Position numbers and translations under genes: made by a program
From: an uncultured Candidatus Saccharibacteria bacterium
Lineage (GTDB): Bacteria > Patescibacteriota > Saccharimonadia > Saccharimonadales > UBA4665
NCBI GenBank assembly: GCA_964603965.1
Contig: CAZRWV010000001.1
Location: 1-46,723 of the forward strand
DNA: 46,723 nucleotides
Direction: 5' to 3'
Part shown: in pieces, positions 1-46,723 of the stretch
How positions within the stretch are numbered: the first letter of the stretch is position 1
Layout of the letters: each line of letters starts with the position of its first letter
Notes under the pieces: model-generated
What the model was told of the DNA's origin: nothing
Database searches by the model: none
Seen by the model: only the letters and a program-made list of their open reading frames with translations

Positions 1-55
1 TTATCTGAAGATTTGGTCCCAGCATTCGGGGGTTCGAATCCCTCCGCCCTAGCCA
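1..55 (+). repeat. att core, left copy (extent unknown because the window begins inside it)
   Basis: TTATCTGAAGATTTGGTCCCAGCATTCGGGGGTTCGAATCCCTCCGCCCTAGCCA is identical to 38658-38712. The sequences diverge immediately after CCA (ATGGAGAC here versus TATATAAG on the right). Confidence 0.85.
11..55 (+). tRNA. 3' 45 nt of a tRNA gene, tRNA-Gln(UUG)-like (anticodon loop to CCA); no 5' half is visible
   Basis: Reads as ATTTGGT (7-nt loop, T33, TTG anticodon), CCCAG, CATTC (variable loop), GGGGG/TTCGAAT/CCCTC (T arm), CGCCCTA (acceptor 3' strand, implying U1:A72), G73, CCA. The preceding TGAAG cannot pair with CCCAG, so the anticodon stem is not closed in the visible sequence. Confidence 0.55.
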
Positions 56-265: not shown

Positions 266-787
266 ATGAAATACATCATAACAGCCCTGTTAAGTGCAGC
301 TTTAATTCTGCTCTTGCCAGGAACTCCGGTTAACAACTCAACCCCCGCAAGTACGAGAGTACGAACTGTGCAGGCCGTAGCTCCTGAAAAGGCTACTGAG
401 GTTAAATCCCCAGCCCCAACGGAACAGAAAACGGTAGTTGAACCGGTGCAACCACAGATAAAGGTGGTTGCAAAACCTATAAGCACAAACTGTGCGGACT
501 ATTCAGGATTAGTTTCTCAGTACGACTGGGACGTTAGAACAGCCTTGGCAATCATGCGAGCAGAAAGCGGATGTGATCCGAACGCAACCAATAGAGCTAA
601 CTACAACGGAACGGTAGATAGAGGACTTTTCCAGGTGAACAGTATTCACAGTGCAAAGGTAAACGGTAATTTAGACTCTCTGTACAACGCATCTACCAAT
701 GTATCGGTCGCGTACCGGATATATCTAGGAAGTGGGTGGAGGGCTTGGAGCGTCTACAATAACGGTCGATATTTGCAGTTCTTATAG
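266..787 (+). CDS. Secreted lysozyme-like / lytic transglycosylase (SLT-type) protein
   Basis: N-terminal hydrophobic signal-like segment, then a Pro/Val/Thr-rich linker, then AIMRAESGCDP...DRGLFQVNS...SVAYRIY motifs typical of the SLT fold. AAAGGAG RBS upstream. Confidence 0.75.
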   Translation: MKYIITALLSAALILLLPGTPVNNSTPASTRVRTVQAVAPEKATEVKSPAPTEQKTVVEPVQPQIKVVAKPISTNCADYSGLVSQYDWDVRTALAIMRAESGCDPNATNRANYNGTVDRGLFQVNSIHSAKVNGNLDSLYNASTNVSVAYRIYLGSGWRAWSVYNNGRYLQFL

Positions 788-1413
788 GTTAGATTGACTA
801 GTCAAAGTGGCTGTATAAGTGCTTGCCCAACTTAAGCAAGAAAAATGCCAAGCGAGTAAGAGCAGCTCATACAGTCAGCTAGTAGCAGTAATGCGGACTG
901 TGAGCCGATAGGGACACAAGAAGCCGCACATGTATAGAGGTTAATTCGTAACTGCCCGTAGCGTTCCATAAGGCAATGAACTCTATGTGTGACCACGCAC
1001 GCGGCTGTGGGTCTAACCCCACTGATAGCTACTAGCGCCACTTCTGACGGTAATTAACTGAAATCCTTTACGGTGAGCAATCGGCCGTAACTAAGTCCTA
1101 CGACGATAGAGTATGCGCAAGCAAATGGTACTCGCCTGAAATATAGCGAAGTCAGTAGGGTTAGTCGGTAAGAATCCGATTGCCGTCAGTAGTGGCTAGT
1201 CAATCTATGTTGTAGGCAGTAGTGCTAGAAATGAGTGGCGCAAAAGGCGGGCGCAGCGATGCAACGCAGGGGGTCATGCCCCGAGCAAGTAGACGCTACC
1301 GAAACTCCCAGAATTCAGCGGGCTGAGCCAACGGTAGTCCCAATGCTTAGATAAGACATATAGGGTGACAACCCGAAAATCCCTATCTCATTTCCAGCAC
1401 CATGCCTACAACA
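788..1413 (+). ncRNA. Candidate large structured RNA with two abutting closed domains; family unassigned
   Basis: No credible ORF. Helices: 790-804/1193-1207 (15 bp), 1041-1053/1180-1192, and 1208-1235/1387-1413 (24 bp in three segments). Internal hairpins at 922-1006, 1068-1090, 1109-1133 (GCAA loop) and 1360-1386. G.U pairs only work on the + strand. Confidence 0.4.
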
Positions 1414-1459
1414 AATGTTCATGCATCCATTGTCAGTAAATAACAATGGAGGAAACCAA

Positions 1460-1699
1460 ATGTCTGACGAACCACAACGCGAAATGACTTTCGGAGAGAA
1501 AGCAGTAGGGTTGAATTTTAACCCGAGTGGCGACACGACGGTAGCAAAGCTCAAGGAACACTACGCAGCAATCATTGATATCCTCAATGATGACCGTGGT
1601 GAAAACCGTGATGAGCGTGCCCGTCTCGCCTCTGTAGCTATCACCGAGGCTCAAGGCGCGCAGATGTGGGCTGTAAAGGCTGTAACCTTTACGCGTTAG
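1460..1699 (+). CDS. Small helical phage protein, possibly Acb2/Tad1-hairpin family (cyclic-nucleotide sponge candidate)
   Basis: GGAGGA RBS 6 nt upstream of the ATG. 79 aa with the motif FGEKAVGLNFNPSGD..V..LK..YA.IID.L...R.RLASVAITEAQGAQMWAVKAVT. The family assignment is from memory only. Confidence 0.5.
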   Translation: MSDEPQREMTFGEKAVGLNFNPSGDTTVAKLKEHYAAIIDILNDDRGENRDERARLASVAITEAQGAQMWAVKAVTFTR

Positions 1700-1851
1700 C
1701 TCAAGTGGTGTCTGCGAATAAGCGAGGCCAATAAGCAGGGGCGCGTGCGTATATATACCCTCAAGTCTCTTTGAAGTGTGAAGGCACGGTAAACGCTTCC
1801 CCCACCACCACGCCAGCCAGTTTTTTGCTGGCAACGGGTGCATGAACAAAC

Positions 1852-1959
1852 GTAGAGCGCATGAGCGTGGGAACGCGAGCCATTTTCTAGTCACTTTCAA
1901 CACAACTAGATCCTGGGCGCGGCGAGTGATGAGCTCGCACCCACGCTCATGCGCTCTAC
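1852..1959. repeat. Long inverted repeat / hairpin (20 bp perfect plus 6 bp)
   Basis: 1852-1871 GTAGAGCGCATGAGCGTGGG is the exact reverse complement of 1940-1959. 1875-1880 pairs with 1933-1938. There is also an inner TCTAGT/ACTAGA stem. Confidence 0.8.
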
Positions 1960-2042
1960 TGTGGGCTGGACTCTGGGTTGAACAGTAACGGCAGATGAGG
2001 CTATTCTGTCGTGCGTTTCAGCTCAGTATCCAGTCCACACCA

Positions 2043-2133
2043 CTTTACTGCTCACCCGGACAGGTGGGGGTGAATCTCGAAAACAACATGTTTGTAGCAA
2101 TCAGAGAGCCATCTGCCCGGACGAGCAGTAAAG
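2043..2133. repeat. Long imperfect hairpin (11+4+7 bp)
   Basis: 2043-2053 CTTTACTGCTC pairs with 2123-2133 GAGCAGTAAAG. Pairing continues at 2056-2059/2117-2120 and 2061-2067/2109-2115 (one G.U). Confidence 0.7.
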
Positions 2134-2333
2134 AATTGTGACTGACAAATATTAATTTATTGACCAATCGAATATGTGCCTGTGTTGAGGGTACGGCCAA
2201 CGGGCCAACTCCTGCGAAGCGGTTATAGTACTCAAGCTTTCCCGCTTTTAACAGACCGACGGAGGTACCTCCGCGTACGCAATTCGGCACAGCATGGGTG
2301 CATTTTCGGTTGGTCACAATTTTGGAGTTTGAA

Positions 2334-2627
2334 ATGAGTAAACCAGATAAGTTGCAAAAAGATGCAAAGAAAATGAACAACGAGTTGCATGAGATGACCG
2401 ATAAGTCTTTTAGGGATGGAGTACGCGAGGCGTGGGTATTCGTAAAGAGGCTCGCCGCCTCTATCTTCGCCGTAGGCGTTGGTGGATCGGGCGTACTAGC
2501 AGAGGTACACGCTACTGCGATGTACGCAGGTCTATATCGAGATGCGGTGATCGTATCCGGTGTGTGCGCCAGTCTCGCTGGCATTGCACTGCTGTACGCT
2601 GCGCTGATGAAAATCGGAAAGGACTAA
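2334..2627 (+). CDS. Small membrane protein (charged N-terminus, two hydrophobic helices)
   Basis: GGAG RBS before the ATG at 2334. Hydrophobic segments LAASIFAVGVGGSGVL and VSGVCASLAGIALLYAAL. Confidence 0.5.
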   Translation: MSKPDKLQKDAKKMNNELHEMTDKSFRDGVREAWVFVKRLAASIFAVGVGGSGVLAEVHATAMYAGLYRDAVIVSGVCASLAGIALLYAALMKIGKD

Positions 2628-36641: not shown

Positions 36642-37499
36642 CTAGACCTTAGTGTGGAAACGGGCATGCGCTTCATCCCCGCGTTTTTCGTGGACATTAA
36701 TATACCCACGCGTAGTAGAAATGTTGGTGTGGCCTAATGCGACCTGGATGTCCACAATCCCTGCTCCGTTTAGGTCCATGTCAGTAGCGAGTCCCCTGCG
36801 GAACGAGTGGGGTGTGATGTTCTTTTCCGTCCCATCCGGCCGCGCCACACCAAGCTCGCCGGCAATCTGGTTTACTATCTGCTCGGCACGTTGCACGGTC
36901 ATACGGCGCATCTGGGACGATATGAATAGGGCTGGTAGCCTGTCGCCTCGTTCGTCCAGGTATTCCGCTATGCAGTGTCGTGCTGTGTCGTCCAGGCGCA
37001 CGACCACTTCTTTACTGTTCTTACCAATTACCTTGGGCTTTGGGTCATGCAATGCGTCCCGGTTCAGGCTCAGCACCTCGGATATACGGCTACCGCTGCT
37101 CCATAGGACTGCCACTAACGCTTTATCCCTGGTATTGGTAGCGTAGTCGATCATCTGCCGGGCCTCGGTCGGAGCAACGTGATCTTTTGGCTCGATGAAT
37201 ATCCGTGGAATCTCAACATCCCGGAAACTAATGACTTTGACGTTGCGTTTGTGTAGGTACTTGAGCACTTCGCGCAGCCTAGATATGTCATGAGCCACAG
37301 TAGAAGACTTGTGGCCCTGCTGTTCCCTGAATAGCTGCCAGCGCATGATGACAGTCTCATCAATCAGCTCCACGGGCATGTCACCACATGCTTTAACCAA
37401 GCTGTTAACTGTTGACCGGTAATTTGTGAGGGTCTTCAACTTAGCACCGTCCTGGTGCTTCTTGAATATGCAGAGTTGAAAAGCCTCAGAAATAACCAT
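36642..37499 (-). CDS. int: Tyrosine recombinase / phage integrase (short, XerC/D-like, no arm-binding domain)
   Basis: SGSRISEV (Arg I), PHSFRRG (H-x-x-R), LGHTNISTTRGY (His and the catalytic Tyr). Adjacent to attR. Confidence 0.9.
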   Translation of the reverse strand: MVISEAFQLCIFKKHQDGAKLKTLTNYRSTVNSLVKACGDMPVELIDETVIMRWQLFREQQGHKSSTVAHDISRLREVLKYLHKRNVKVISFRDVEIPRIFIEPKDHVAPTEARQMIDYATNTRDKALVAVLWSSGSRISEVLSLNRDALHDPKPKVIGKNSKEVVVRLDDTARHCIAEYLDERGDRLPALFISSQMRRMTVQRAEQIVNQIAGELGVARPDGTEKNITPHSFRRGLATDMDLNGAGIVDIQVALGHTNISTTRGYINVHEKRGDEAHARFHTKV

Positions 37500-37841
37500 G
37501 TAGCAGCCTTTCTATTCCCGTAAGGTGTGTAATCCAGGATTAGAATAGAGATTGCTTGCTGCGGTCCAGCCTGACTTGACCGTACTAGGGCAAACTCGGC
37601 GCTATATGGTTTAAAACTTGTGCGTGGAAACCTTGCGGAGTACGCACATAGTAAACCCAGTATAATACCTGAGTAGTTGCCCTCTGCAAGCGTGAAGTTA
37701 TAGATTTTTGTTCATTGGAAAACGACTAATGCCCACCACTTCTCTACAGGTGCCCGTTATGTAGTGTTGTCGCCCTCCTCTGATTACGTACTGTCATTTA
37801 TATATCTGTTGACCCCTGTTGTGCAAGGGGTGAAGTTGTCA

Positions 37842-37870
37842 CTGACACTTTTGCTTCGTTATGTTAAAAT
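37842..37870 (+). promoter_or_regulatory. Sigma70-like promoter facing attR
   Basis: CTGACA (37842-37847), 17-nt spacer, TAAAAT (37865-37870). Confidence 0.4.
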
Positions 37871-38244
37871 ATTTGGCCTACGTCAAAGAAACCTGACTTT
37901 TTATTCCCCTCCGGGAGCAGGCACCTTACATTCTGCTGACAATCCGGTGAGATTTTTTCCATTCAAACCTAAACACCTTAGTCAGATTAACGAAAGTGAT
38001 CCATTCCAAAACCCCTGTGAGGTACCGTATAGGGACGGTAGAGTGTTTGAAATAAACCAACCTTATTTGTTAAATGACTAAGGTATGCAAGCTTTAACCC
38101 TCTCGCTTGTCCAGCTCCAGTGAATACCACCGGACCGCCAGGCGCTTTACGATAGCACTAAACGTTGTTTGTACTTGTGGCCTTATTAAATAGACAGGTG
38201 CACCCCTAGACCACTGTTCGCCCTCTTCCACGCGTCATACGAGG

Positions 38245-38657: not shown

Positions 38658-38712
38658 CTTATCTGAAGATTTGGTCCCAGCATTCGGGGGTTCGAATCCC
38701 TCCGCCCTAGCC
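38658..38712 (+). repeat. att core, right copy (attR)
   Basis: Identical to 1-55. Phage sequence lies to the left and host sequence with a terminator lies to the right. Confidence 0.85.
38668..38712 (+). tRNA. Displaced 3' fragment of a tRNA-Gln(UUG)-like gene (not a complete tRNA)
   Basis: Same 45 nt as 11-55. The upstream sequence has no TAGGGCG acceptor strand, D arm or anticodon-stem partner. Confidence 0.55.
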
Positions 38713-38729
38713 ATATATAAGCGTTAGGA

Positions 38730-38758
38730 AAGACTTCTTCGGAAGTCTTTTTTGTTTT
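38730..38758 (+). terminator. Rho-independent terminator (native tRNA terminator)
   Basis: AAGACTTC/GAAGTCTT 8-bp stem with a TTCG tetraloop, followed by TTTTGTTTT. Confidence 0.85.
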
Positions 38759-38772
38759 GGTATGATTGGGGT

Positions 38773-39369
38773 ATGACCAAATACGTTATCGGTTCCGGTG
38801 GATTGGGCCACGCTGAAGACAAGGGACGTGCGTTCGTAAACGAGATGCTTAAGGGACTGGGCAATAACCCAAAGCTCCTGTACTGCTTCTTTGCCGACCC
38901 ACGTGAGTTCTGGGAATCGAAGTTTCATAAATACAAGGCTGATTTTAGTGCGCTACTGCCGGAGGACGTTACGCTGGAAGCCGACCTAGCCATGCCCGAT
39001 ACTTTTGCCGAACAGTGCGCCAAAGCGGATGCTATTTACATGCATAGCGGCGAGAACCACCTAGCGTTGTACTGGTTGCGGCAATTTGACTTGCCAAAGA
39101 TATTTGACGGCAAGGTGGTTGCCACTAGCTCTGCCAGTTCTAACTCCCTATCAACGAGTTTTTACTCACCCAGCTGGCGGCAGATTATGGATGGACTAAG
39201 TATTCTACCTATCAAGTTCATGCCGCACTTCAAAGCAGCCTGGAGTGATACAGACTCGCGTGGGCCGGTCGACTGGCAGAAAGCATATGACGACTTGGCC
39301 GCTTACGGTGACACCTCGCTGCCACTGCATGCCCTGAGAGACGGTGAGTTTGTGGTGATCGAGAAATAA
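38773..39369 (+). CDS. Peptidase S51 (dipeptidase E)-like / class I glutamine amidotransferase-like protein
   Basis: Start at MTKYVIGSGG. HSGENHLALYW and VVATSSASSNSL resemble the S51 nucleophile region. Tentative. Confidence 0.45.
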   Translation: MTKYVIGSGGLGHAEDKGRAFVNEMLKGLGNNPKLLYCFFADPREFWESKFHKYKADFSALLPEDVTLEADLAMPDTFAEQCAKADAIYMHSGENHLALYWLRQFDLPKIFDGKVVATSSASSNSLSTSFYSPSWRQIMDGLSILPIKFMPHFKAAWSDTDSRGPVDWQKAYDDLAAYGDTSLPLHALRDGEFVVIEK

Positions 39370-39393
39370 GTTTGCTATGCTAGAGTTACCTAT

Positions 39394-40044
39394 ATGAAGC
39401 TGTTTGTTTGGGATCTTCACGGGACGCTAGAGCAAGGCAACGAAGATGCGGTAATCGAGCTATCGAATATGGCGCTCGAACAGCTGGGCTATACGCAGCG
39501 CTTCTTGGCGGAGGATTCGCGCAGCCTGTACGGGCTCAAGTGGTATGAGTATTTCCAGACGCTTCTTCCGGAGGAATCCCACGAAAAGCACATGGAGCTG
39601 CAGCGGCTTAGTTTTCGGCTATCCGATGATAATACCGACCTTATTGCACGGCATATGCGCCCCACAACGCATGCCCACGATGTTTTGCAGATGATCGCCG
39701 GTAGCCCACATGCACAAATCCTGATCTCCAACACTGTGCCGTCCACGATACCGCTTTTTATGAAGGCACTGGCAATGGAGCATTATTTTAACGAGCTGAA
39801 TGCATTTGCCGTGAACGCCCATGCCAAAGAGGCTATGAAAAGCAAAGAGGATGCCCTGAGTGTCTACATGAACGGCAAGTTGTTCGAAGATGTTATTGTA
39901 ATCGGCGACTCGGCGACTGACTTACGTCTGGCTGAGTATGCCAAGGCCAAGGCGTATCTGTATGCCCACCCTGGCTACGCCTTCCGGGCTGACGGTGGCG
40001 ATTACCGCATCAATGATTTGCGTGAAGTGCTAGTGCACGTGTAG
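39394..40044 (+). CDS. HAD-superfamily hydrolase-like protein
   Basis: Motif I-like LFVWDLHGTLE (second Asp replaced by His) and motif IV VIVIGDSATDL. Confidence 0.6.
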   Translation: MKLFVWDLHGTLEQGNEDAVIELSNMALEQLGYTQRFLAEDSRSLYGLKWYEYFQTLLPEESHEKHMELQRLSFRLSDDNTDLIARHMRPTTHAHDVLQMIAGSPHAQILISNTVPSTIPLFMKALAMEHYFNELNAFAVNAHAKEAMKSKEDALSVYMNGKLFEDVIVIGDSATDLRLAEYAKAKAYLYAHPGYAFRADGGDYRINDLREVLVHV

Positions 40045-40103
40045 CCATTCGTTCCGAAAAGCGCTCTAGCGCGGTCACGGAATTTTTATGCTATCGTTAG
40101 CAT

Positions 40104-40565
40104 ATGGCGCAGGCGACTAAATATTTTAGGATGCGGGTTGTGATCGGCATTTTGTTCCGCAACGGCGGTAAGCTACTACTGGCACAGCGTAAAGACACGG
40201 GCTATCATGACGGTAACTACAGCTTGCCGGCCGGCCATCTGGATGGCAACGAGCTTGCGACCGCAGCTGCTGCGCGTGAGGCAAAAGAAGAGCTTGATGT
40301 TGACGTAGACCCTGCCGATTTTCGCCTAGCACATGTAACGCACCGGCTTGGTACTGCAACGACTGTCGAGCGAATCGAGCTGTTTTTTGAGGTACGAAAG
40401 TGGCAAGGCGAACCGCGCAATGCGGAGTCGCACAAGTGTGACCACGTGGCATGGTATCCGGTGAACGACTTGCCCAAAAACATGATTCCCCAGGTGCGGC
40501 GTGTGATCGGGCTGATTGGTGAGGGTGTAATGTACTCAGAGTACTCCGACGAGCCCACGGACTAG
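40104..40565 (+). CDS. NUDIX hydrolase
   Basis: Nudix box GHLDGNELATAAAAREAKEELDV (G-x5-E-x7-REAxEE-x-x-V). Confidence 0.85.
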   Translation: MAQATKYFRMRVVIGILFRNGGKLLLAQRKDTGYHDGNYSLPAGHLDGNELATAAAAREAKEELDVDVDPADFRLAHVTHRLGTATTVERIELFFEVRKWQGEPRNAESHKCDHVAWYPVNDLPKNMIPQVRRVIGLIGEGVMYSEYSDEPTD

Positions 40566-40600
40566 CTTCCCGGAGAATCTTTCTTTGGTATAGTACTACC

Positions 40601-41221
40601 ATGACAAAACCAGACAATTCCACCATCATCAACGTTTGCGTAATTCCCGACGAGCGCGTTGGCGCGGAGTGTGTGTTAATCAGCCAGTCGCTCAAGAGCG
40701 ACGATACGCTGTTTGTGCTGGGCGGCGATAAGTTTGCTCACATGACGGCGTATATGGCGCGGTTCGCTGATGCGGACATCGACAAAGTCGTGCAAGGTGT
40801 GGAAAGTGCACTGAAAACCGCGTCGTCGTTCCGCTGCGAGCATACCGGTTACTTTATGACCGCTGGGCGCTACATGGAGGTGTCTTACCGCAAGTCGGAT
40901 GCGTTTATGGGCTTGCACGAATCGCTGATCACGGCCGTGTCTGATCTGCGCATCAACCCGGGCAACCCTTACGAGGAGGGCTACTTTACACCCTACACTG
41001 CCGAACAGCAACAAAACGCTGCCGAAACCGGCTATGACTTGGCACGGAATCTGTACCGCCCACACGTAACCCTCACCCGCTACCAGGAAGGCGGCGTGCC
41101 GGCAGAATTCCCGGCGCTTCCCGCAGTTAACCTATCGTTTGATCTAGACAAAGTTTGCGTATACAAGGCTGACGACAACGGTGCGGTTTACGAACTGATC
41201 CGCGAGTTCCACGTTCGCTAG
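40601..41221 (+). CDS. 2H phosphoesterase superfamily protein (LigT-like)
   Basis: Two H-x-T motifs: AHMTAY and PHVTLTRY. Confidence 0.65.
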   Translation: MTKPDNSTIINVCVIPDERVGAECVLISQSLKSDDTLFVLGGDKFAHMTAYMARFADADIDKVVQGVESALKTASSFRCEHTGYFMTAGRYMEVSYRKSDAFMGLHESLITAVSDLRINPGNPYEEGYFTPYTAEQQQNAAETGYDLARNLYRPHVTLTRYQEGGVPAEFPALPAVNLSFDLDKVCVYKADDNGAVYELIREFHVR

Positions 41222-41222
41222 C

Positions 41223-42407
41223 TTACCCCGCAAACTGCCCGCTCACAAAGAACATATACAAAATTGCCTGCATAGCGATACCTACGACCACGAGTGCGCC
41301 AAGCGCAGCCGGCAGCCACTTGCGTGTCCCGTAGGCACGCAGCAGAAATAGTGGCACCAGATAGACCACCAGGCACGGCAGCACGTAGCGGTGCACCGAC
41401 ACGGTGTTGTTATTGACGGTAAAGAATACCACGGAGGCCAGGCCGGCGATGCCGAGCGGCAGCGTTTTGCCGCGGATGACGATGATGCAGTGCAGAGACG
41501 CGAGCGTTAACAGTCCCAGGGCTGCAAGTGGCAGTATGGCGTTGACTAGCACAACCGACCAGGCCTCGCCGTTCGTGCCGAGCAGTTTGTACACCACCTC
41601 GCCACAGCTATGGATAATGGCGCGCGGAAAGAACGGGTTAAACTTGTGGTACGACCAGTCGCTGGTGGCGTGGTAGCCGTGGACCATGGCCAGAAAGTCG
41701 CCGCGGGTGGCTTGCAGGTATAGCCCGTAGCCAATAAAGCCTAACGGCACGAGCGCGAAGGCCAAGATGCGAGGGTTGACCAGCCGTTTGATAGACCAAT
41801 CATGGGCGCGCATAAACTCCAGCGTACACAGGCCGATCACCAGCAGCGCCGGTATCTTGACGATCATAATCAGACACAGCAGAATGCCCATGCGCAGCCA
41901 CTGGCGCCGCAGCGCGAACAGATATGCCCAGAATGCCAGGGCACAGAACAGCGCCTCGGCGTAGAAAAAGTGCATAAAGAGTGCCGTCGGGAACGCCAAG
42001 AACAGCCCGACCATCAGCCACTTGTAGCGGCCAAGGTCGAACGCCTCGGCTATGCGCACGAGTGCCATGATTGCCAGCCACAACGAGACGGTGTTGACCA
42101 CTAGTGCGGCCGCTAGAACACTCAGGGCGTGAAAACTAATGGCCTGCACCAACAATACGGCCAGCGGAAACAACGGATAGAACACCGGTGCGGCATTGTT
42201 CACCACATAGCCATTGCCTGTGATGATGGACAAGAACCAGCCACCGTCCCAATGGCTGGTGTGGTTGAGCAGACTGATCGTGGACGGATCAGCAGCAAAG
42301 TGACGTTCCAACAGATAGCCGGCGGCCGTCATAAACGCCTGCCAACCCAGCGCGATGCCGAGCGATCGCACCCACACCGACGTCCAGTTGATTTTTATGC
42401 TTCGCAT
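41223..42407 (-). CDS. Polytopic membrane glycosyltransferase (PIG-V/GT-C-like)
   Basis: At least 10 hydrophobic helices. N-terminal-loop motif HWDGGWFLSIITGNGY, as in PIG-V-type mannosyltransferases. Confidence 0.55.
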   Translation of the reverse strand: MRSIKINWTSVWVRSLGIALGWQAFMTAAGYLLERHFAADPSTISLLNHTSHWDGGWFLSIITGNGYVVNNAAPVFYPLFPLAVLLVQAISFHALSVLAAALVVNTVSLWLAIMALVRIAEAFDLGRYKWLMVGLFLAFPTALFMHFFYAEALFCALAFWAYLFALRRQWLRMGILLCLIMIVKIPALLVIGLCTLEFMRAHDWSIKRLVNPRILAFALVPLGFIGYGLYLQATRGDFLAMVHGYHATSDWSYHKFNPFFPRAIIHSCGEVVYKLLGTNGEAWSVVLVNAILPLAALGLLTLASLHCIIVIRGKTLPLGIAGLASVVFFTVNNNTVSVHRYVLPCLVVYLVPLFLLRAYGTRKWLPAALGALVVVGIAMQAILYMFFVSGQFAG

Positions 42408-42435
42408 CCGCTTCCTAATGTATCATAGAGCTAGG

Positions 42436-43380
42436 ATGAAAAAGAAAACCATAACCTATCTGTTCCCGATTTATAACGAGTCGGGAAACATTGACCTGTT
42501 GCACCACGCCATGCAGGAGGTGTTGGCGGCCAAGAGCGAGAGCTACCAGTTTGAGCTGATCTTTATTAACGACGGCAGCCGCGATGATTCGCTGGCCAAG
42601 CTGTATGCCCTGCAAGCGCGGGATGAGCGGGTGCGGGTGATCAACTTTGCGCGCAACTTTGGCCACCAACTGGCCGTGACCGCCGGGCTGGACTACGCCG
42701 TGGGCGACGCGGTGATCATTATGGATAGCGACATGCAGGATCCGCCGGCCGTGAGTCTGCAGCTGATCGACAAGTGGGAGCAAGGCTTCGACGTGGTATA
42801 TGCTCAGCGCCGGACGCGCAGCGACAGCTGGTTCAAGAAGCTGACCGCCAGCCTATTTTATCGCTTGCTACGGCGCGTGGCCGACGTCGACATCCCGCGC
42901 AACACCGGTGACTTCCGGCTGGTGGACCGCAAGGTGGTCGGGGCGCTCAAGCAGTTCCGCGAGCACAACCGGTTCCTACGCGGCATGGTCAGCTACATTG
43001 GCTTTAAGCAAACCGCTGTGCTGTTCGACCGTGATAAGCGTCACGCCGGTGTTACCGGCTATCCGTTCAAGAAGATGGTGCGGTTTGCTGCCGACGGCAT
43101 CCTCAGCTTTTCGTCGACGCCGCTCAAGCTGATCAGCCGCATCGGTTATACGTTTTCTTTCTTTAGCCTCTTAGGCATTTTGTATGCGCTAGGCATGAAA
43201 ATCCTCTACCCCGATCAGGTAATTTCCGGCTGGACGTTCACGGTAATCGCGATTTTGCTCATCGGCGGTCTGCAAATGGTGATGCTGGGCGTGCTGGGCA
43301 GCTATATCGGGCGGATCTACACCGAGGTACAGGGTCGGCCGCTGTACATCGTGGAATCGGTGCGCGATCATGCTGAGTAG
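42436..43380 (+). CDS. GT2 polyprenyl-phosphate glycosyltransferase (GtrB/ArnC/DPM1-like)
   Basis: YLFPIYNESGNI, FINDGSRDDS, IIMDSDMQDPP (DxD), two C-terminal TM helices. Start taken at MKKKTITY. Confidence 0.85.
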   Translation: MKKKTITYLFPIYNESGNIDLLHHAMQEVLAAKSESYQFELIFINDGSRDDSLAKLYALQARDERVRVINFARNFGHQLAVTAGLDYAVGDAVIIMDSDMQDPPAVSLQLIDKWEQGFDVVYAQRRTRSDSWFKKLTASLFYRLLRRVADVDIPRNTGDFRLVDRKVVGALKQFREHNRFLRGMVSYIGFKQTAVLFDRDKRHAGVTGYPFKKMVRFAADGILSFSSTPLKLISRIGYTFSFFSLLGILYALGMKILYPDQVISGWTFTVIAILLIGGLQMVMLGVLGSYIGRIYTEVQGRPLYIVESVRDHAE

Positions 43381-43783
43381 TTCGATCGCCCACGTCCGGC
43401 GGCTGTTTGACCAGCACACCGGGGTACGGTACGTGTTCGTGGGCGGTTCGTCGTATGCGGTGGAGTTGAGCTCGCTGCTGGCGCTATACCACCTGACCGG
43501 CTCACGTAGCTTAGCGACGGCAGTATCGTTCCTGATCGGCTTCTGCATCGCGTTTGGCCTGCAAAAACTGGTAGCGTTCCGCGAATTCAGCCGCGAGCTC
43601 AAGGCCATCGGCCGCCAAGGGACGCTCTATGCGTTGCTCAACGCCTGGAACTGGGTCTTCACCGTTGCGTTCGTGTCGATCTTGCCTGCGGACAATCTAA
43701 TAGTCACGCGCACCATCGCACTGGTGCTGATGACCTCGTGGAACTTCTTTGTGTACCGGTATGTGATTTTCCGGCAGCGGTAG
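43370..43783 (+). CDS. GtrA-family membrane protein
   Basis: 137 aa with four hydrophobic helices. VRYVFVGGSSYAVELSSLL N-terminus typical of GtrA. Overlaps the GT2 gene's stop. Confidence 0.7.
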   Translation: MLSSSIAHVRRLFDQHTGVRYVFVGGSSYAVELSSLLALYHLTGSRSLATAVSFLIGFCIAFGLQKLVAFREFSRELKAIGRQGTLYALLNAWNWVFTVAFVSILPADNLIVTRTIALVLMTSWNFFVYRYVIFRQR

Positions 43784-43795
43784 CATGGGCCCGAC

Positions 43796-45025
43796 CTAGG
43801 CGTGCTCGCTCTTCACACGAGAGATGCTGAGCAGGTAGTCTTTGTCTTCGGTCAGACTGGTGTGTAGGACGTCGAAGTCATTGCGGTCGAGCTGTTGGAG
43901 TACTTCTGGAACGTTTTGGTGACGCGAGCGCCAAAGCAGGATAGTCTCGTTTTTGTTGAGCGTTACGGCACGCATGCCCTTCTCAAAAGTAAAATCTATG
44001 GTGAGCGCGACTTTAAGCCGTATCTGGATATAGCGTTGGCGCCGCTCTGGGTCGTAGCCAGCCTCGACATCGTAAAATGACTCGTCGATATTCAGAAGAT
44101 CCAAGACCATCTTTGATTTTGCGTCTATTAATGACGTTTTAGTGCCGATGTTAAAGTCAAAGTAGCGGCGGGCCGCTTCGGTGTCGAGCTTACGGTCGAA
44201 AACGAATAAATCATTGCGGTTCATGCTATCGTGTATGGCCCTCAGCGCGCCGTCAGCCGATCGGAAGTTCGAGAACGTGTCGCCTAGGGCAAGTATCACA
44301 TCAATGGTTTTGTCAGCCTGTTCGCTCAGTGCATCTTCCGTCAATATACTAATGAAGCGATCATAGTTAATATCCGCCTGGTAACCCGTAAATGAAACTT
44401 GGCCACCAAACCATGAGTCTATGTTGTGCTGTACCAATTGCAGCATGGCGGGGCTAATGTCCACGGCCATGTAGCGATTCAACTTACCACTTTCCAATAG
44501 GTGTTGCAGTAGGTTTTTAACCGGCAAGGCATTGCCCGGCCCAACATCAATCACGTTTACGTGGTCATAGTTTTTTAGCAGATGGTCGATGTAGTCCTGA
44601 CTGATTCGCAAGTGCGTCATGCTGTTGTAGAGATTGTTTGATGTCTTTTCTGACACCAGACGCTGGGCGTACTCGTCCCAATATGTGGCACCACCATTGA
44701 AGTACCCGTATTGGAATGGTATCTCCCGGTGAATGTCCAGGTTGGACGCAATGTCGAAGATTTGTTGCTGGTTATAACGTTGGTAAAAGTCGGGTTTGGG
44801 ACTAATAACCTTGACGCCACGAGTGTTGCGAAACTTGCGCCGGCTTTCCACTAGCTCTTCGATGAGGGTGATGTTTCTAGTAGTATTCGCTATCCAGGTG
44901 CGATTGTGTGCTTGATGCAGTTGCAGGTCTAATTTGCCGGCTTTGGCTTCCTGAATCCAGTTCGAGACCGTTTTTTCAGATACATGATACGTTTCTGCTA
45001 GTTCATTCTTCTTGAAGTAAAGCAT
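43796..45025 (-). CDS. EgtD-like SAM-dependent methyltransferase (Methyltransf_33-type) with an N-terminal HTH
   Basis: VIDVGPGNALPVKNLL, YMAVDISPAML, LALGDTFSNF. N-terminal ELAETYHVSEKTVSNWIQEAK. The start could be 45025 or 45163. Confidence 0.5.
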   Translation of the reverse strand: MLYFKKNELAETYHVSEKTVSNWIQEAKAGKLDLQLHQAHNRTWIANTTRNITLIEELVESRRKFRNTRGVKVISPKPDFYQRYNQQQIFDIASNLDIHREIPFQYGYFNGGATYWDEYAQRLVSEKTSNNLYNSMTHLRISQDYIDHLLKNYDHVNVIDVGPGNALPVKNLLQHLLESGKLNRYMAVDISPAMLQLVQHNIDSWFGGQVSFTGYQADINYDRFISILTEDALSEQADKTIDVILALGDTFSNFRSADGALRAIHDSMNRNDLFVFDRKLDTEAARRYFDFNIGTKTSLIDAKSKMVLDLLNIDESFYDVEAGYDPERRQRYIQIRLKVALTIDFTFEKGMRAVTLNKNETILLWRSRHQNVPEVLQQLDRNDFDVLHTSLTEDKDYLLSISRVKSEHA

Positions 45026-45204
45026 AAAGGTAAAACTGAAATCCTTAAAAAATGTTCTTGTATGTTTCCATATGTATGAGGTAACATATGGATAGTGATA
45101 CGGAACGTTAAGTAATAAAGTATTACAAACGGTTATCGTATCACCTTTAGAGAAGCTGTTCAAGCTGTGATCCTACAGCAATAACAGAAAGGATAACGAT
45201 AACC

Positions 45205-45525
45205 ATGGTCAAAGGGACATTAGTCAAGCAACCGAAGCGCCGATCTCGCGCCTCGGCTCCGCAGCCCCAAGGCAGTGTTTTTACTCGTTACGTTGGTAAA
45301 CTGGATGTCAAGCCGCGACAGCAGTCCCGCTTGTCGCTTGGTCTCTTTAGCGCCGATAATCCAGCCAAAGGCTTTTGTGTCCACCTGACCCCTGAACCCG
45401 AGGATCCGGAAAGCATTACATCACATATTGCTACCCCGATGGGCCGGATGAGCACCTACGAGCTCACGCTCCAAATTACCAATTACGGCGCAGAGCGAAT
45501 TAGCGCCGAAGTCTGGCAAATGTAA
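45205..45525 (+). CDS. Hypothetical protein
   Basis: AAAGGA RBS region. 106 aa with a basic N-terminus. Confidence 0.4.
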   Translation: MVKGTLVKQPKRRSRASAPQPQGSVFTRYVGKLDVKPRQQSRLSLGLFSADNPAKGFCVHLTPEPEDPESITSHIATPMGRMSTYELTLQITNYGAERISAEVWQM

Positions 45526-45621
45526 CAGGCACCGCAAGGTGTCATTTTTATACCTCAAGCGGCTTTAGCCGGATTTCATGAGCATTTAATAACTGGGCGC
45601 TACACTACCAATGAGGTTAGT

Positions 45622-46723
45622 ATGGCAAACAGTGGTAGCGATCAAACAAACACACGTGCTCTATGGTATGTAGCGGTGCTGAGCGTGCTGATGCTTGGCG
45701 GCCTGCTGTTGTCGTTGCATCTGATTGCGTATACGCGGCGGCCGGTGCTGACATCGCCAGCTAGTCAGACCGACAGTACGACCAATGTGACGCTGCCCGA
45801 TGTCGACGCCTCGTCCATTCAAGAAATTTCTATCTCGAGTGCACAACTGATGCCTATGGTTACGGGCGCAATTACCGGATCCAAGATTGCTCCGCAGACG
45901 ATTACTATGGACAATCTGAACCCTTCGGTGGTGGATTCGCTGCTAAACAATCTGCAGCTGACACTTCCCCGCCTGAATGATCTGGTTGATCTGAACGGGC
46001 TGCTCGCCCAGCTGCAGGCTCTACAAGCCTTGCCGGTATTGAACGGTGAGATCAACCTTGACGACCTGTCGCCGACGCTTGAAACGTTGCTCAACACGAC
46101 CGGCGTTATCTTACCCGGCTCGATTACGAGCACGGAACTGGCGGATGGTGCGGTGCAGACGGCGAATGTAGCGCTGGGGGCAATCACTGGGCCGCTGCTG
46201 GCCGACGGCTCGATTGGTGCCCTGCAACTCGCGGATGGGTCCGTGGGCGTATCGCAGTTGGTTGACGGGTCGATTACGGGTAATAAGATTGCGCCGGGTG
46301 CCATAGGTACGGCGCACATTCTGGCCGCCGCTGTTACTGGTGCGCTGATTGCTGACGGAACTATAGGCACTGATAATATTGCCAGTGGCGCGATTACTGG
46401 GCCACTTTTGGCGGACGGCTCGGTCGGTAGCTCCCAGATAGCCGATGGAGTTATTGGTACGGCTCACATCGCAGATGGTGCCATCACAACTGCGTTGTTA
46501 GGTCCTGGGGCGGTAACAAGCGACCGTCTGGCCGACAATTCGGTTACGCCCGACGCGCTCGCGGCTGGAGCGGTGACGGGCAGCGCTATCGCCGACGACG
46601 CTATTACCGGCGCCAAAATCCTGGCCGGCGCTATCACAAGCGACGACATTGCCAACGGTTCGATTACGGGTATCCTGATCGCGGATGGGGCCATCACGAC
46701 TAACAACATAGCGGCAGATGCGA
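45622..46723 (+). CDS. Membrane-anchored surface protein with tandem decapeptide repeats (partial, runs off the window)
   Basis: Not in the ORF track because it has no stop. GAGG RBS. N-terminal TM helix ALWYVAVLSVLMLGGLLLSL, then at least 17 repeats of G(A/S)(I/V)T(G/T)xx(I/L)A(D/x). Confidence 0.6.
   Translation, partial: MANSGSDQTNTRALWYVAVLSVLMLGGLLLSLHLIAYTRRPVLTSPASQTDSTTNVTLPDVDASSIQEISISSAQLMPMVTGAITGSKIAPQTITMDNLNPSVVDSLLNNLQLTLPRLNDLVDLNGLLAQLQALQALPVLNGEINLDDLSPTLETLLNTTGVILPGSITSTELADGAVQTANVALGAITGPLLADGSIGALQLADGSVGVSQLVDGSITGNKIAPGAIGTAHILAAAVTGALIADGTIGTDNIASGAITGPLLADGSVGSSQIADGVIGTAHIADGAITTALLGPGAVTSDRLADNSVTPDALAAGAVTGSAIADDAITGAKILAGAITSDDIANGSITGILIADGAITTNNIAADA

Follow-up and report, generated by a model that had tools for sequence, protein, structure and literature searches.

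Hairpin-closed modules in a non-coding block between the genes of a temperate prophage

Closest described systems

The 23S rRNA of Coxiella burnetii carries an intervening sequence (IVS) of 428 nt, a stem-closed, horizontally acquired and open reading frame (ORF)-carrying insert which is excised by RNase III (PMC4990558). Here we describe elements of a similar layout from the left end of a prophage on the 46,723-nt contig CAZRWV010000001.1 (this whole stretch of DNA is referred to below as the window), in which a 626-nt block at positions 788-1413 separates the gene for an SLT lysozyme-like protein from that for an Acb2-like protein. The original prediction, made from the sequence of the window, took this block for a single 0.63-kb RNA of two domains, a reading that is not supported, because the first domain (D1), an insert nested within it and the second domain (D2) are each present or missing independently in related phages. 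Judged from the comparison of these phages, the block is instead a mosaic of three hairpin-closed modules, namely D1, the insert in the D1 stem, and D2, and the modules constitute one small, previously undescribed family confined to this phage clade.

Like the IVS, the modules are optional, end-closed inserts whose variable interior is able to carry an ORF (as does the HNH-containing module of the related contig L091) and which may be inserted in a structured RNA (as is the nested module in D1). The differences are that the IVS occupies rRNA helices 25 and 45 whereas the modules lie between phage cistrons, that no sequence similarity exists between the two, and that cleavage by RNase III has been shown for the IVS, whereas for the modules we infer it. 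Precedents for processing are also provided by the RNase III hairpins of T7-type early mRNAs and by the processing stems of rRNA operons. The modules share with these the repetition of related duplexes between cistrons, some two helical turns long and interrupted by an internal loop, as well as long-range pairing that can enclose long RNAs; the T7 sites, however, are simple local hairpins without large interiors, and cleavage of the modules is a prediction read from their sequence.

Transcribed palindromes are likewise known from the REP/BIME (REPIN), ERIC and Correia/NEMIS families, of which ERIC accepts insertions, Correia is cut by RNase III and REP stabilises the mRNA upstream of it. The modules are, as these are, extragenic imperfect palindromes often placed directly after stop codons, and their arms are GTAG-rich like those of REP. 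Whereas each of those families numbers tens to hundreds of near-identical copies in a host genome and occurs in both orientations, the modules are few per phage, diverged and co-oriented, they evolve by compensatory change, and neither RAYT nor another transposase was seen with them.

The PeSL of T4-type phages, an early promoter joined to a terminator stem-loop, forms a mobile regulatory cassette (PMC2839356, PMC4122927). Both it and the modules are repeated intergenic stem-loop elements of an accessory-gene region, flanking small ORFan genes that differ between close relatives, but the modules have no detected promoter or U-tract and form far longer stems, around interiors that vary. ROOL and GOLLD RNAs (Rfam; 10.1101/2024.12.08.627333) resemble the block in being non-coding, highly structured and located in prophages near a tRNA locus, and differ from it in that the block gives no covariance-model match and is a mosaic with non-conserved interiors, not a conserved multi-domain fold.

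Modules of the block and their relatives

Relatives of the phage were reached through homologues of its SLT protein (45-61% identity) and of its NinB-like protein (~77-80%), and the comparison set comprised the contigs L095, L096 (= L097, L102), L103, L106, L107 and L111, plus L091, with ~25 further clade members left out. The nearest identifiable relative, which was also the sole return of a scan of GTDB genomes, is a 38-kb contig of a metagenome-assembled genome of an uncultured Oleiharenicola (Verrucomicrobiota), and the clade consists of rare temperate phages of Verrucomicrobia (Opitutaceae-like) hosts. A Logan contig, L010, is 100% identical to the block and so gives no comparative information. 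No DNA match to the block exists in GenBank phages or plasmids, the closest NinB of a GenBank phage being only 39% identical; searches of IMG/VR with two proteins, one protein alignment and four DNA patterns returned nothing related (chance hits or none), and nothing related was returned by the JGI metagenomes, as searched. For the module interiors, and thus for most of the 626 nt, no homologue was detected.

For D2 we use the term cassette. The 28-nt arms of its closing stem form 24 bp around a 151-nt interior (1236-1386) that is unique to the window phage, and they are interrupted by an internal loop, GUA 1219-1221 opposite CA 1401-1402, and by an A1227xC1395 mismatch. At least 14 closing stems of this type occur in seven contigs of related phages, every one of them oriented like the genes (further examples are given in Table 1). 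In related phages a cassette follows the SLT homologue directly on its 3' side, as at L096 8467-8596 and L095 8507-8617, immediately after the SLT stop codon; the outer stem is the same or covaries and the interiors are unrelated, so that the arms of the L096 cassette, TGTTGTAGGCAGTAGTGCTGGTAGCGAG ... CTCGCTACCAGCACCATGCCTACAACA, match those of D2 around an unrelated interior of 75 nt vs 151 nt. The core that recurs in these stems is 5' GCAGUAG(Y)GCUGG / 3' CCAGC(R)CCAUGC with the asymmetric GUA/CA internal loop, and each 5' arm holds two to three GTAG tetranucleotides. Outer stems are not conserved between cassette types, and the interiors, 45 to ~500 nt in length, are mutually unrelated, one of them (L091) holding an HNH gene. 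The two main arm types are weakly self-palindromic (GCGC-AGUA-GCGC), a property lost in L111 11855-11954 and L096 14424-14575. Readings of the GUA/CA loop as a K-turn or a sarcin-ricin motif were rejected on inspection, because the opposing strand does not fit.

The original prediction had proposed covariation as a check, and comparative data show the closing helices to be kept by compensatory change, both in the D2-type stems and in helix P2 of D1. For the former, the arms of eight cassettes were aligned, anchored on the GUA/CA loop, with the interiors replaced by GAAA. In this alignment 94% of cells are paired vs 76.7% in shuffles, a percentage that is partly circular and inflated because the stem arms were picked for their pairing, and 14 of the 25 pairs have changed on both sides. 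The covariation score is 0.613 vs 0.263 in shuffles (reached by 0 of 500), and sliding the partner strand by 1-3 columns makes pairing fall to 20-55%. A covariance model built from the same eight cassettes recovers four on which it was not trained (L095 8618-8729, L106 6561-6666, L103 769-875 and L095 13185-13246), each of which lies on the gene strand. The circularity in the choice of arms is mitigated by these untrained hits, as it is by the fixed register and by the controls with shuffles and slides. Between the window and L111, the change in the outer stem from GGCA/TGCC to GATA/TATC amounts to two compensatory pairs. Since the helices are maintained by compensatory changes, the structure of the closing stems is under selection, and it is on the long interrupted closing duplex, ~24-30 bp, that selection acts, with the enclosed sequence free to vary.

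Several other members of the family deserve a description of their own. Within the cassette at window positions 1852-1959, a 74-nt two-hairpin core (1869-1942) matches L096 15950-16023 with 97% identity, the genes of the two phages being ~75% identical; in L096 its closing stem and its genome position are different. It could be a functional small RNA under sequence constraint, or else an element transferred recently. The L091 cassette belongs to a different prophage, which also adjoins a tRNA, and has an Acb2 gene of 96% identity downstream of it. In L106 (5487-5530) nothing but a short hairpin of 9 bp (GGGTGTAGC...GCTACACCC) comes after the SLT stop codon; this hairpin has the same GTAGC/GCTAC motif and may represent a minimal or ancestral form of the cassette.

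Module D1 is a three-way junction in which P1 comprises 15+6 bp, P2 (809-820/865-876) has a variable tip, and P3 (878-886/1028-1036) includes the pairing GCGG 893-896/CCGC 924-927 and a variable interior at ~897-1027. This GCGG/CCGC pairing competes with the 6-bp helix of the original prediction near 923-928/1001-1006, and it is the former that is kept in the single clear homologue of D1. That homologue, L096 14210-14413, does not share the genome position of D1 in the window but is situated 6 kb downstream, within a second non-coding island, and folds (z = -6.6) to the closing stem P1 and the hairpins P2 and P3 in the order found in the window. Sequence common to the two consists of TTGACTAG...AAGTGGCTG..TAAGTGC, CAG(Y)CAGCTAGTAGCA..AATGCGG and GCTACTAGC.CCACTT..CTAGTCAA. 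Pairs 6 and 7 of P2 are U-A and A-U in the window, C-G and G-C in L096, and G-C and U-A in a partial copy in L111, while a G.U within GGCUG/CAGUC is common to the window and L111. By eye, the 3' part of D1 (GCTACTAGCGCCACTT) resembles the cassette 3' arm (GCTACCAGCACCATGC), and D1 may therefore be a cassette scaffold in which a hairpin replaces the internal loop. A string in the D1 stem, UUGACUAG, resembles the 3' strand of metazoan Y RNA, but sits here on the 5' strand.

Between the SLT stop codon and the cassette, D1 is absent from L095, L096, L103 and L111. The two phages that have D1 both carry a cassette immediately 3' of it, at a distance of 0 nt in the window and 5 nt in L096; the order of D1 then cassette thus recurs in a second phage (L096 14210-14575), as a single RNA would predict, although a fixed unit is not supported.

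The nested module divides the 3' strand of P1 in the window, where ~150 nt closed by their own helix have come between its two parts. D1 of L096 is without the insert: CCACTT continues directly to AGCTAGTCAA, and the P1 3' strand is unbroken (CCACTTAGCTAGTCAA). The insert carries hairpins at ~1068-1088 and 1108-1132, and in its 3' arm the CAGTAGTG motif known from the cassette 5' arms is found again. Taken together, these distributions show that related phages differ in whole modules, which have been acquired, lost or nested one in another.

As to the block as a whole, all of the long-range helices listed in the original prediction were confirmed (Table 1), and so was its ORF-free character: the longest ORFs are of 30-39 aa on the + strand and of 69 aa, with a GTG start, on the - strand, with 0 Pfam matches. 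A hidden gene was therefore rejected, and a remnant of the HNH gene of the L091 cassette is also absent (tblastn). The 7-nt pseudoknot proposed at 1013-1019/1158-1164 is indeed complementary, but by hand arithmetic chance alone would give ~12 such 7-mer matches in a sequence of 626 nt. By hand count, the + strand of the block contains 8 GTAG, vs ~2.4 expected, and 4 CTAC. The minimum free energy (MFE) of 788-1413 is -221.2 kcal/mol vs -183.7 +/- 5.4 in dinucleotide shuffles (z = -6.98), and D1 and D2 alone reach z = -5.27 (790-1207) and z = -4.25 (1208-1413). Local 200-nt windows in a sliding scan are ordinary (z = +0.1 for 801-1000 and z = -1.1 for 1201-1400), and because these interior windows are unremarkable the global folding signal comes mainly from the closing stems.

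An imperfect inverted repeat of 38 nt links 1365-1402, in the 3' part of D2, with 2302-2338, the ribosome-binding region of the gene starting at 2334. Long-range pairing between the two was rejected as probably due to chance, the duplex energy of -27.9 kcal/mol being ordinary (background -22.9 +/- 4.0) and surpassed in many windows.

Table 1. Coordinates of the modules and of neighbouring features in the window and in related phage contigs
Feature	Sequence	Positions	Strand	Details
attL core	window	28-55	+	3' end of tRNA-type integration target; repeat at 38686-38713 = attR
SLT_3/SLT lysozyme-like secreted protein gene	window	266-787	+	Pfam SLT_3 2.3e-15, SLT 1.1e-8
Module D1, three-way junction	window	790-1207	+	P1 outer 790-804/1193-1207, 15 bp, one G.U (T802.G1195); P1 inner 805-810/1038-1043
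Nested module in 3' strand of D1 closing stem	window	~1041-1192	+	closing helix 1041-1054/1179-1192 (CTTCTGACGGTAAT / ATTGCCGTCAGTAG), 13-14 bp, in MFE fold; 1041-1053/1180-1192 = 13 positions, one mismatch (T1043xT1190), one G.U
Module D2 (cassette)	window	1208-1413	+	1208-1235/1387-1413 = 11+5+8 bp: outer stem 1208-1218/1403-1413; inner stem 1222-1226/1396-1400 and 1228-1235/1387-1394
Acb2/Tad1-hairpin family small protein gene, 79 aa	window	1460-1699	+	Pfam PF24729 6.7e-8, 33.1 bits (cut-off 27)
Second ORF-free structured block	window	1700-2335	+	conserved across clade (L095, L096, L106, L111), unlike 788-1413
Further cassette	window	1852-1959	+	perfect 20-bp closing stem (GTAGAGCGCATGAGCGTGGG / CCCACGCTCATGCGCTCTAC); 68-nt two-hairpin interior; z = -8.3
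Further cassette stems	L096	8858-8972, 14424-14575		
Further cassette stems	L095	8619-8728, 8893-9023		
Further cassette stems	L106	6307-6558, 6563-6665		
Further cassette stem	L103	~770-875		
Further cassette stems	L111	5725-5824, 11854-11955		
Cassette	L091	475-1026		closing stem GTAAGACGCAGTAGTGCTGGATTAG ... CTAATCTAGCACCACGCGTCTTAC; encloses 36-aa ORF and complete HNH_3 endonuclease gene

What the closing duplexes may do

Our tentative preference is for the modules being transcribed with the operon and their closing duplexes acting as elements of RNA processing or as barriers to decay. The modules sit in the intercistronic space of what would be a + strand accessory operon, composed of the SLT lysozyme gene, the modules and the Acb2-like anti-defence gene, beginning 0-5 nt after a stop codon and ending ~45 nt before the next ribosome-binding site. 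Transcription of this operon would carry them into RNA, where an RNase III-type, double-strand-specific endonuclease would cut the closing duplexes, or the duplexes would block 3' exonucleases; by either route the flanking cistrons would be uncoupled and their levels set. Stems of the IVS, rRNA and T7 type join the two ends of the enclosed RNA in a duplex of at least 20 bp that tolerates internal loops, and the closing stems resemble them, with 24 bp in D2, 15+6 bp in D1 and 13-14 bp in the nested module. The enclosed RNAs could be inert passengers, with perhaps a few functional small RNAs among them (the 74-nt core at 1869-1942 and the T-arm-like interiors of L095).

A number of observations weigh against this proposal. 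The G.U pairs had been taken by the original prediction to mark the + strand as the RNA, which fails, since the - strand of the block folds to -235.0 kcal/mol with 25 G.U vs -221.2 kcal/mol with 12 G.U for the + strand; it is thus the - strand that has the lower MFE, and the closing stems have equal G.U counts on both strands (26 vs 25). Summed over 19 stems, arms-only folds mildly favour the + strand (-658.8 vs -624.1 kcal/mol). Neither thermodynamics nor G.U counts thus assign the strand, and the hairpins may act at the level of the DNA. To this may be added that no sigma-70-type promoter was found in 1-2700, with no promoter-like site on either strand, that no phage RNA-processing gene was found among the scanned ORFs, and that support for D1 consists of two full sequences and one partial one. 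Nor is the GUA/CA loop universal: the cassette at 1852-1959 lacks it, and L095 8619-8728 and L096 14424-14575 have a different one. Since many cassettes occupy orthologous positions their uniform orientation represents perhaps 8-9 independent sites. The circularity in the choice of stem arms, noted above, counts on the same side. A candidate sigma-70 promoter within D1, TTGACT...TATAAG at 794-819, was rejected, its spacer being of 14 nt and its -10-like hexamer not being kept in L096, and no + strand terminator-like site was found in 96-2700.

The main rival to processing or decay control is that the modules are selfish, non-autonomous DNA repeats, of the REP/BIME (REPIN) or the miniature inverted-repeat transposable element (MITE)/Correia kind, mobilised in trans, for instance by a RAYT-type Y1 enzyme, with the RNA hairpin as a by-product. 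We consider this unlikely, although much of what has been described would be expected of such repeats: terminal inverted repeats (790-804/1193-1207 and 1208-1235/1387-1413), polymorphism both in presence and absence and in nested insertion, a 74-nt core shared at 97% identity with another position while phage genes are ~75% identical, an extragenic position directly after stop codons as for REPs, and closing stems without a clear strand signal. The cassette arms are, moreover, rich in GTAG, which is a hallmark of REP elements. What speaks against mobilisation is that the copies are not near-identical but diverged, with pairing kept by compensatory change, that their orthologous positions are conserved although the SLT proteins are only 45-61% identical, and that all of them have a single orientation. 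Neither D1 copy has a target-site duplication (flanks TTATAGGT / TGTTGT in the window and ATCAAT / CCAAAC in L096), no Y1 transposase is present among the scanned ORFs of the window and host flank or the called genes of L095, L096 and L111, and neither a transposase nor a copy of a hairpin module was found in the 8-kb host flank (38714-46723). Nor does the 46.7-kb window contain another copy of D1, the only other one being the diverged copy in another phage. The original prediction had named a MITE-like copy of 790-1207 elsewhere in the genome as evidence against itself, and such a copy does exist at another position, but in a different phage; as it is diverged, with compensatory changes and without target-site duplication, D1 is unlike a young MITE.

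Quite unlikely, in our view, is a more far-reaching form of the processing hypothesis, according to which the modules would be self-nesting stem-closed elements, similar to intervening sequences of the phage operon RNA, which move among the hairpins of a counter-defence island, are excised by a double-strand RNase and deliver functional small RNAs beside Acb2, either tRNA-like decoys or anti-defence RNAs, for which the 74-nt two-hairpin core and the T-arm-like interiors would be the candidates.

It is improbable that the modules are scaffolds of recombination for the shuffling of accessory (anti-defence) gene cassettes, for which the PeSL of T4-type phages offers a precedent (PMC2839356, PMC4122927). 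The slots between cassettes do vary, being occupied by Acb2 in the window, by ORFs of 61 aa and 42 aa in L096 and by one of 208 aa in L106, interiors and stems recombine independently, and the phage encodes the recombination functions RecT, YqaJ and NinB. The breakpoints of the Acb2 slot, however, lie outside the stems, one ~17 nt beyond the D2 3' arm and the other ~25 nt short of the next cassette, and recombination by homology needs no base-pairing, yet the pairing is conserved; PeSL consists of a promoter and a terminator, and neither a promoter-like site nor a U-tract terminator was found here. Shuffling is perhaps a consequence of the repeats, and not their function.

Equally doubtful is one functional multi-domain RNA of ~0.6 kb and of the ROOL/GOLLD class, acting as a unit, in spite of the strong global fold, the tRNA-proximal prophage setting and the position of D1 directly 5' of a cassette in both phages. 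The likeness to ROOL and GOLLD suggested in the original prediction was not borne out by Rfam 15, which gives no match over the whole window at gathering thresholds and, at E <= 10 in 1-2400, only an 18-nt tmRNA/tRNA T-arm fragment at 27-44; the related loci give tRNAs only. Besides, four relatives have D2-type cassettes without D1, most of the 626 nt has no homologue, the interior windows are not unusually stable, and the nested insert is optional. The Rfam families ROOL, GOLLD, HEARO, raiA, group I/II introns, riboswitches, Y RNA and hammerhead were all rejected in the absence of matches, the CUGAUGAG-like strings in two interiors not being hammerheads, and a bacterial (YrlA-like) Y RNA was rejected as no TROVE/Rsr gene was present among the scanned ORFs either.

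Integron attC sites read RYYYAAC...GTTRRRY. Very improbable is the idea that the modules are folded single-stranded DNA recombination sites of the attC kind, used by the neighbouring tyrosine recombinase for gene-cassette capture, which would account for a similar shape (outer stem, unpaired spacer, inner stem and variable terminal structure) and for the small promoterless ORFs that alternate with hairpins beside int/attP in L095 and L096, but which was rejected on the polarity of the core sites, opposite here (arms 5' TGTTGTAGGCA ... TGCCTACAACA 3', with GTT... at the 5' base and ...AAC at the 3' base), and on exchange breakpoints that lie outside the stems, and with which outer stems that differ between cassette types, interiors reaching ~500 nt, a second island far from int and an ordinary phage integrase (Pfam) also disagree.

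Prophage setting and significance

The prophage context assumed in the original prediction was upheld, since an exact 28-nt att repeat at 28-55 and 38686-38713 (0 expected by chance) bounds a prophage of ~38.7 kb at about 56-38713. No complete tRNA or tmRNA gene was found in the window with ARAGORN, and a hairpin resembling a terminator is located at 70-95. The genes at the left end, all on the + strand, are in the order SLT_3 gene, 626-nt block, Acb2-like gene, ORF-free block 1700-2335, small membrane protein, RecT, YqaJ exonuclease and NinB-like protein, and the SLT stop codon is 2 nt upstream of module D1. The integrase belongs to the generic Phage_integrase family (Pfam), and its tyrosine integrase module (36642-37499 on the - strand, and 37476-37880) is inverted with respect to L096 and L095, in which int, attP and the SLT gene read one way. 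The host flank (38714-46723) encodes a HAD hydrolase, a NUDIX protein, a 2H/2'-5' RNA ligase-superfamily protein (40601-41221), a GT2 glycosyltransferase, GtrA and a SAM methyltransferase.

Proteins of the Acb2/Tad1-hairpin family are anti-CBASS/anti-Thoeris sponges. The Acb2-like protein is strongly conserved, with >2000 relatives and 22 invariant columns in an alignment of 36 sequences, and DNA homology to the closest Acb2 loci (L091 and L092, 96% protein identity) starts at window position 1429-1430, just past the block. The gene behaves as a separately mobile unit starting near 1429. The block occurs in 0 of the ~85 Acb2 loci that were fetched and, as these loci are without it and homology begins at 1429-1430, it is not part of the Acb2 gene unit.

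The phage had been described in the original prediction as otherwise packed with genes, which does not hold in this region, given the second ORF-free structured block at 1700-2335. This contains the cassette at 1852-1959, a hairpin at 2036-2140 and, before the next gene (start 2334), a conserved TGTGAC...GTCACA region that may be an operator or promoter, and it folds better on the + strand (MFE -274.4 vs -242.3 kcal/mol). A second non-coding island, 0.5-1.2 kb long, is found in related phages (L095 13761-14710; L096 14114-14603 and 14908-16067; L111 11745-12708). It contains cassettes, stem-closed modules whose interiors are T-arm-like, and tRNA genes (tRNA-His and, in L095, a tRNA carrying a long insertion). 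Neither a tRNA nor a counterpart of this island was detected in the window.

For genome scans these results imply a caution, in that a very strong global fold score can stem from a few closing stems around non-conserved filler. If the proposed reading is correct, a clade of Verrucomicrobia temperate phages would organise its accessory anti-defence region with private modular RNA hairpin cassettes that are absent from Rfam, IMG/VR and GenBank phages, and intercistronic control of the RNase III/REP type would be extended to phage counter-defence islands, where an effect on the expression of an Acb2-family anti-CBASS gene would be directly testable. The modules would also provide a natural example of structured RNAs growing by nested insertion.

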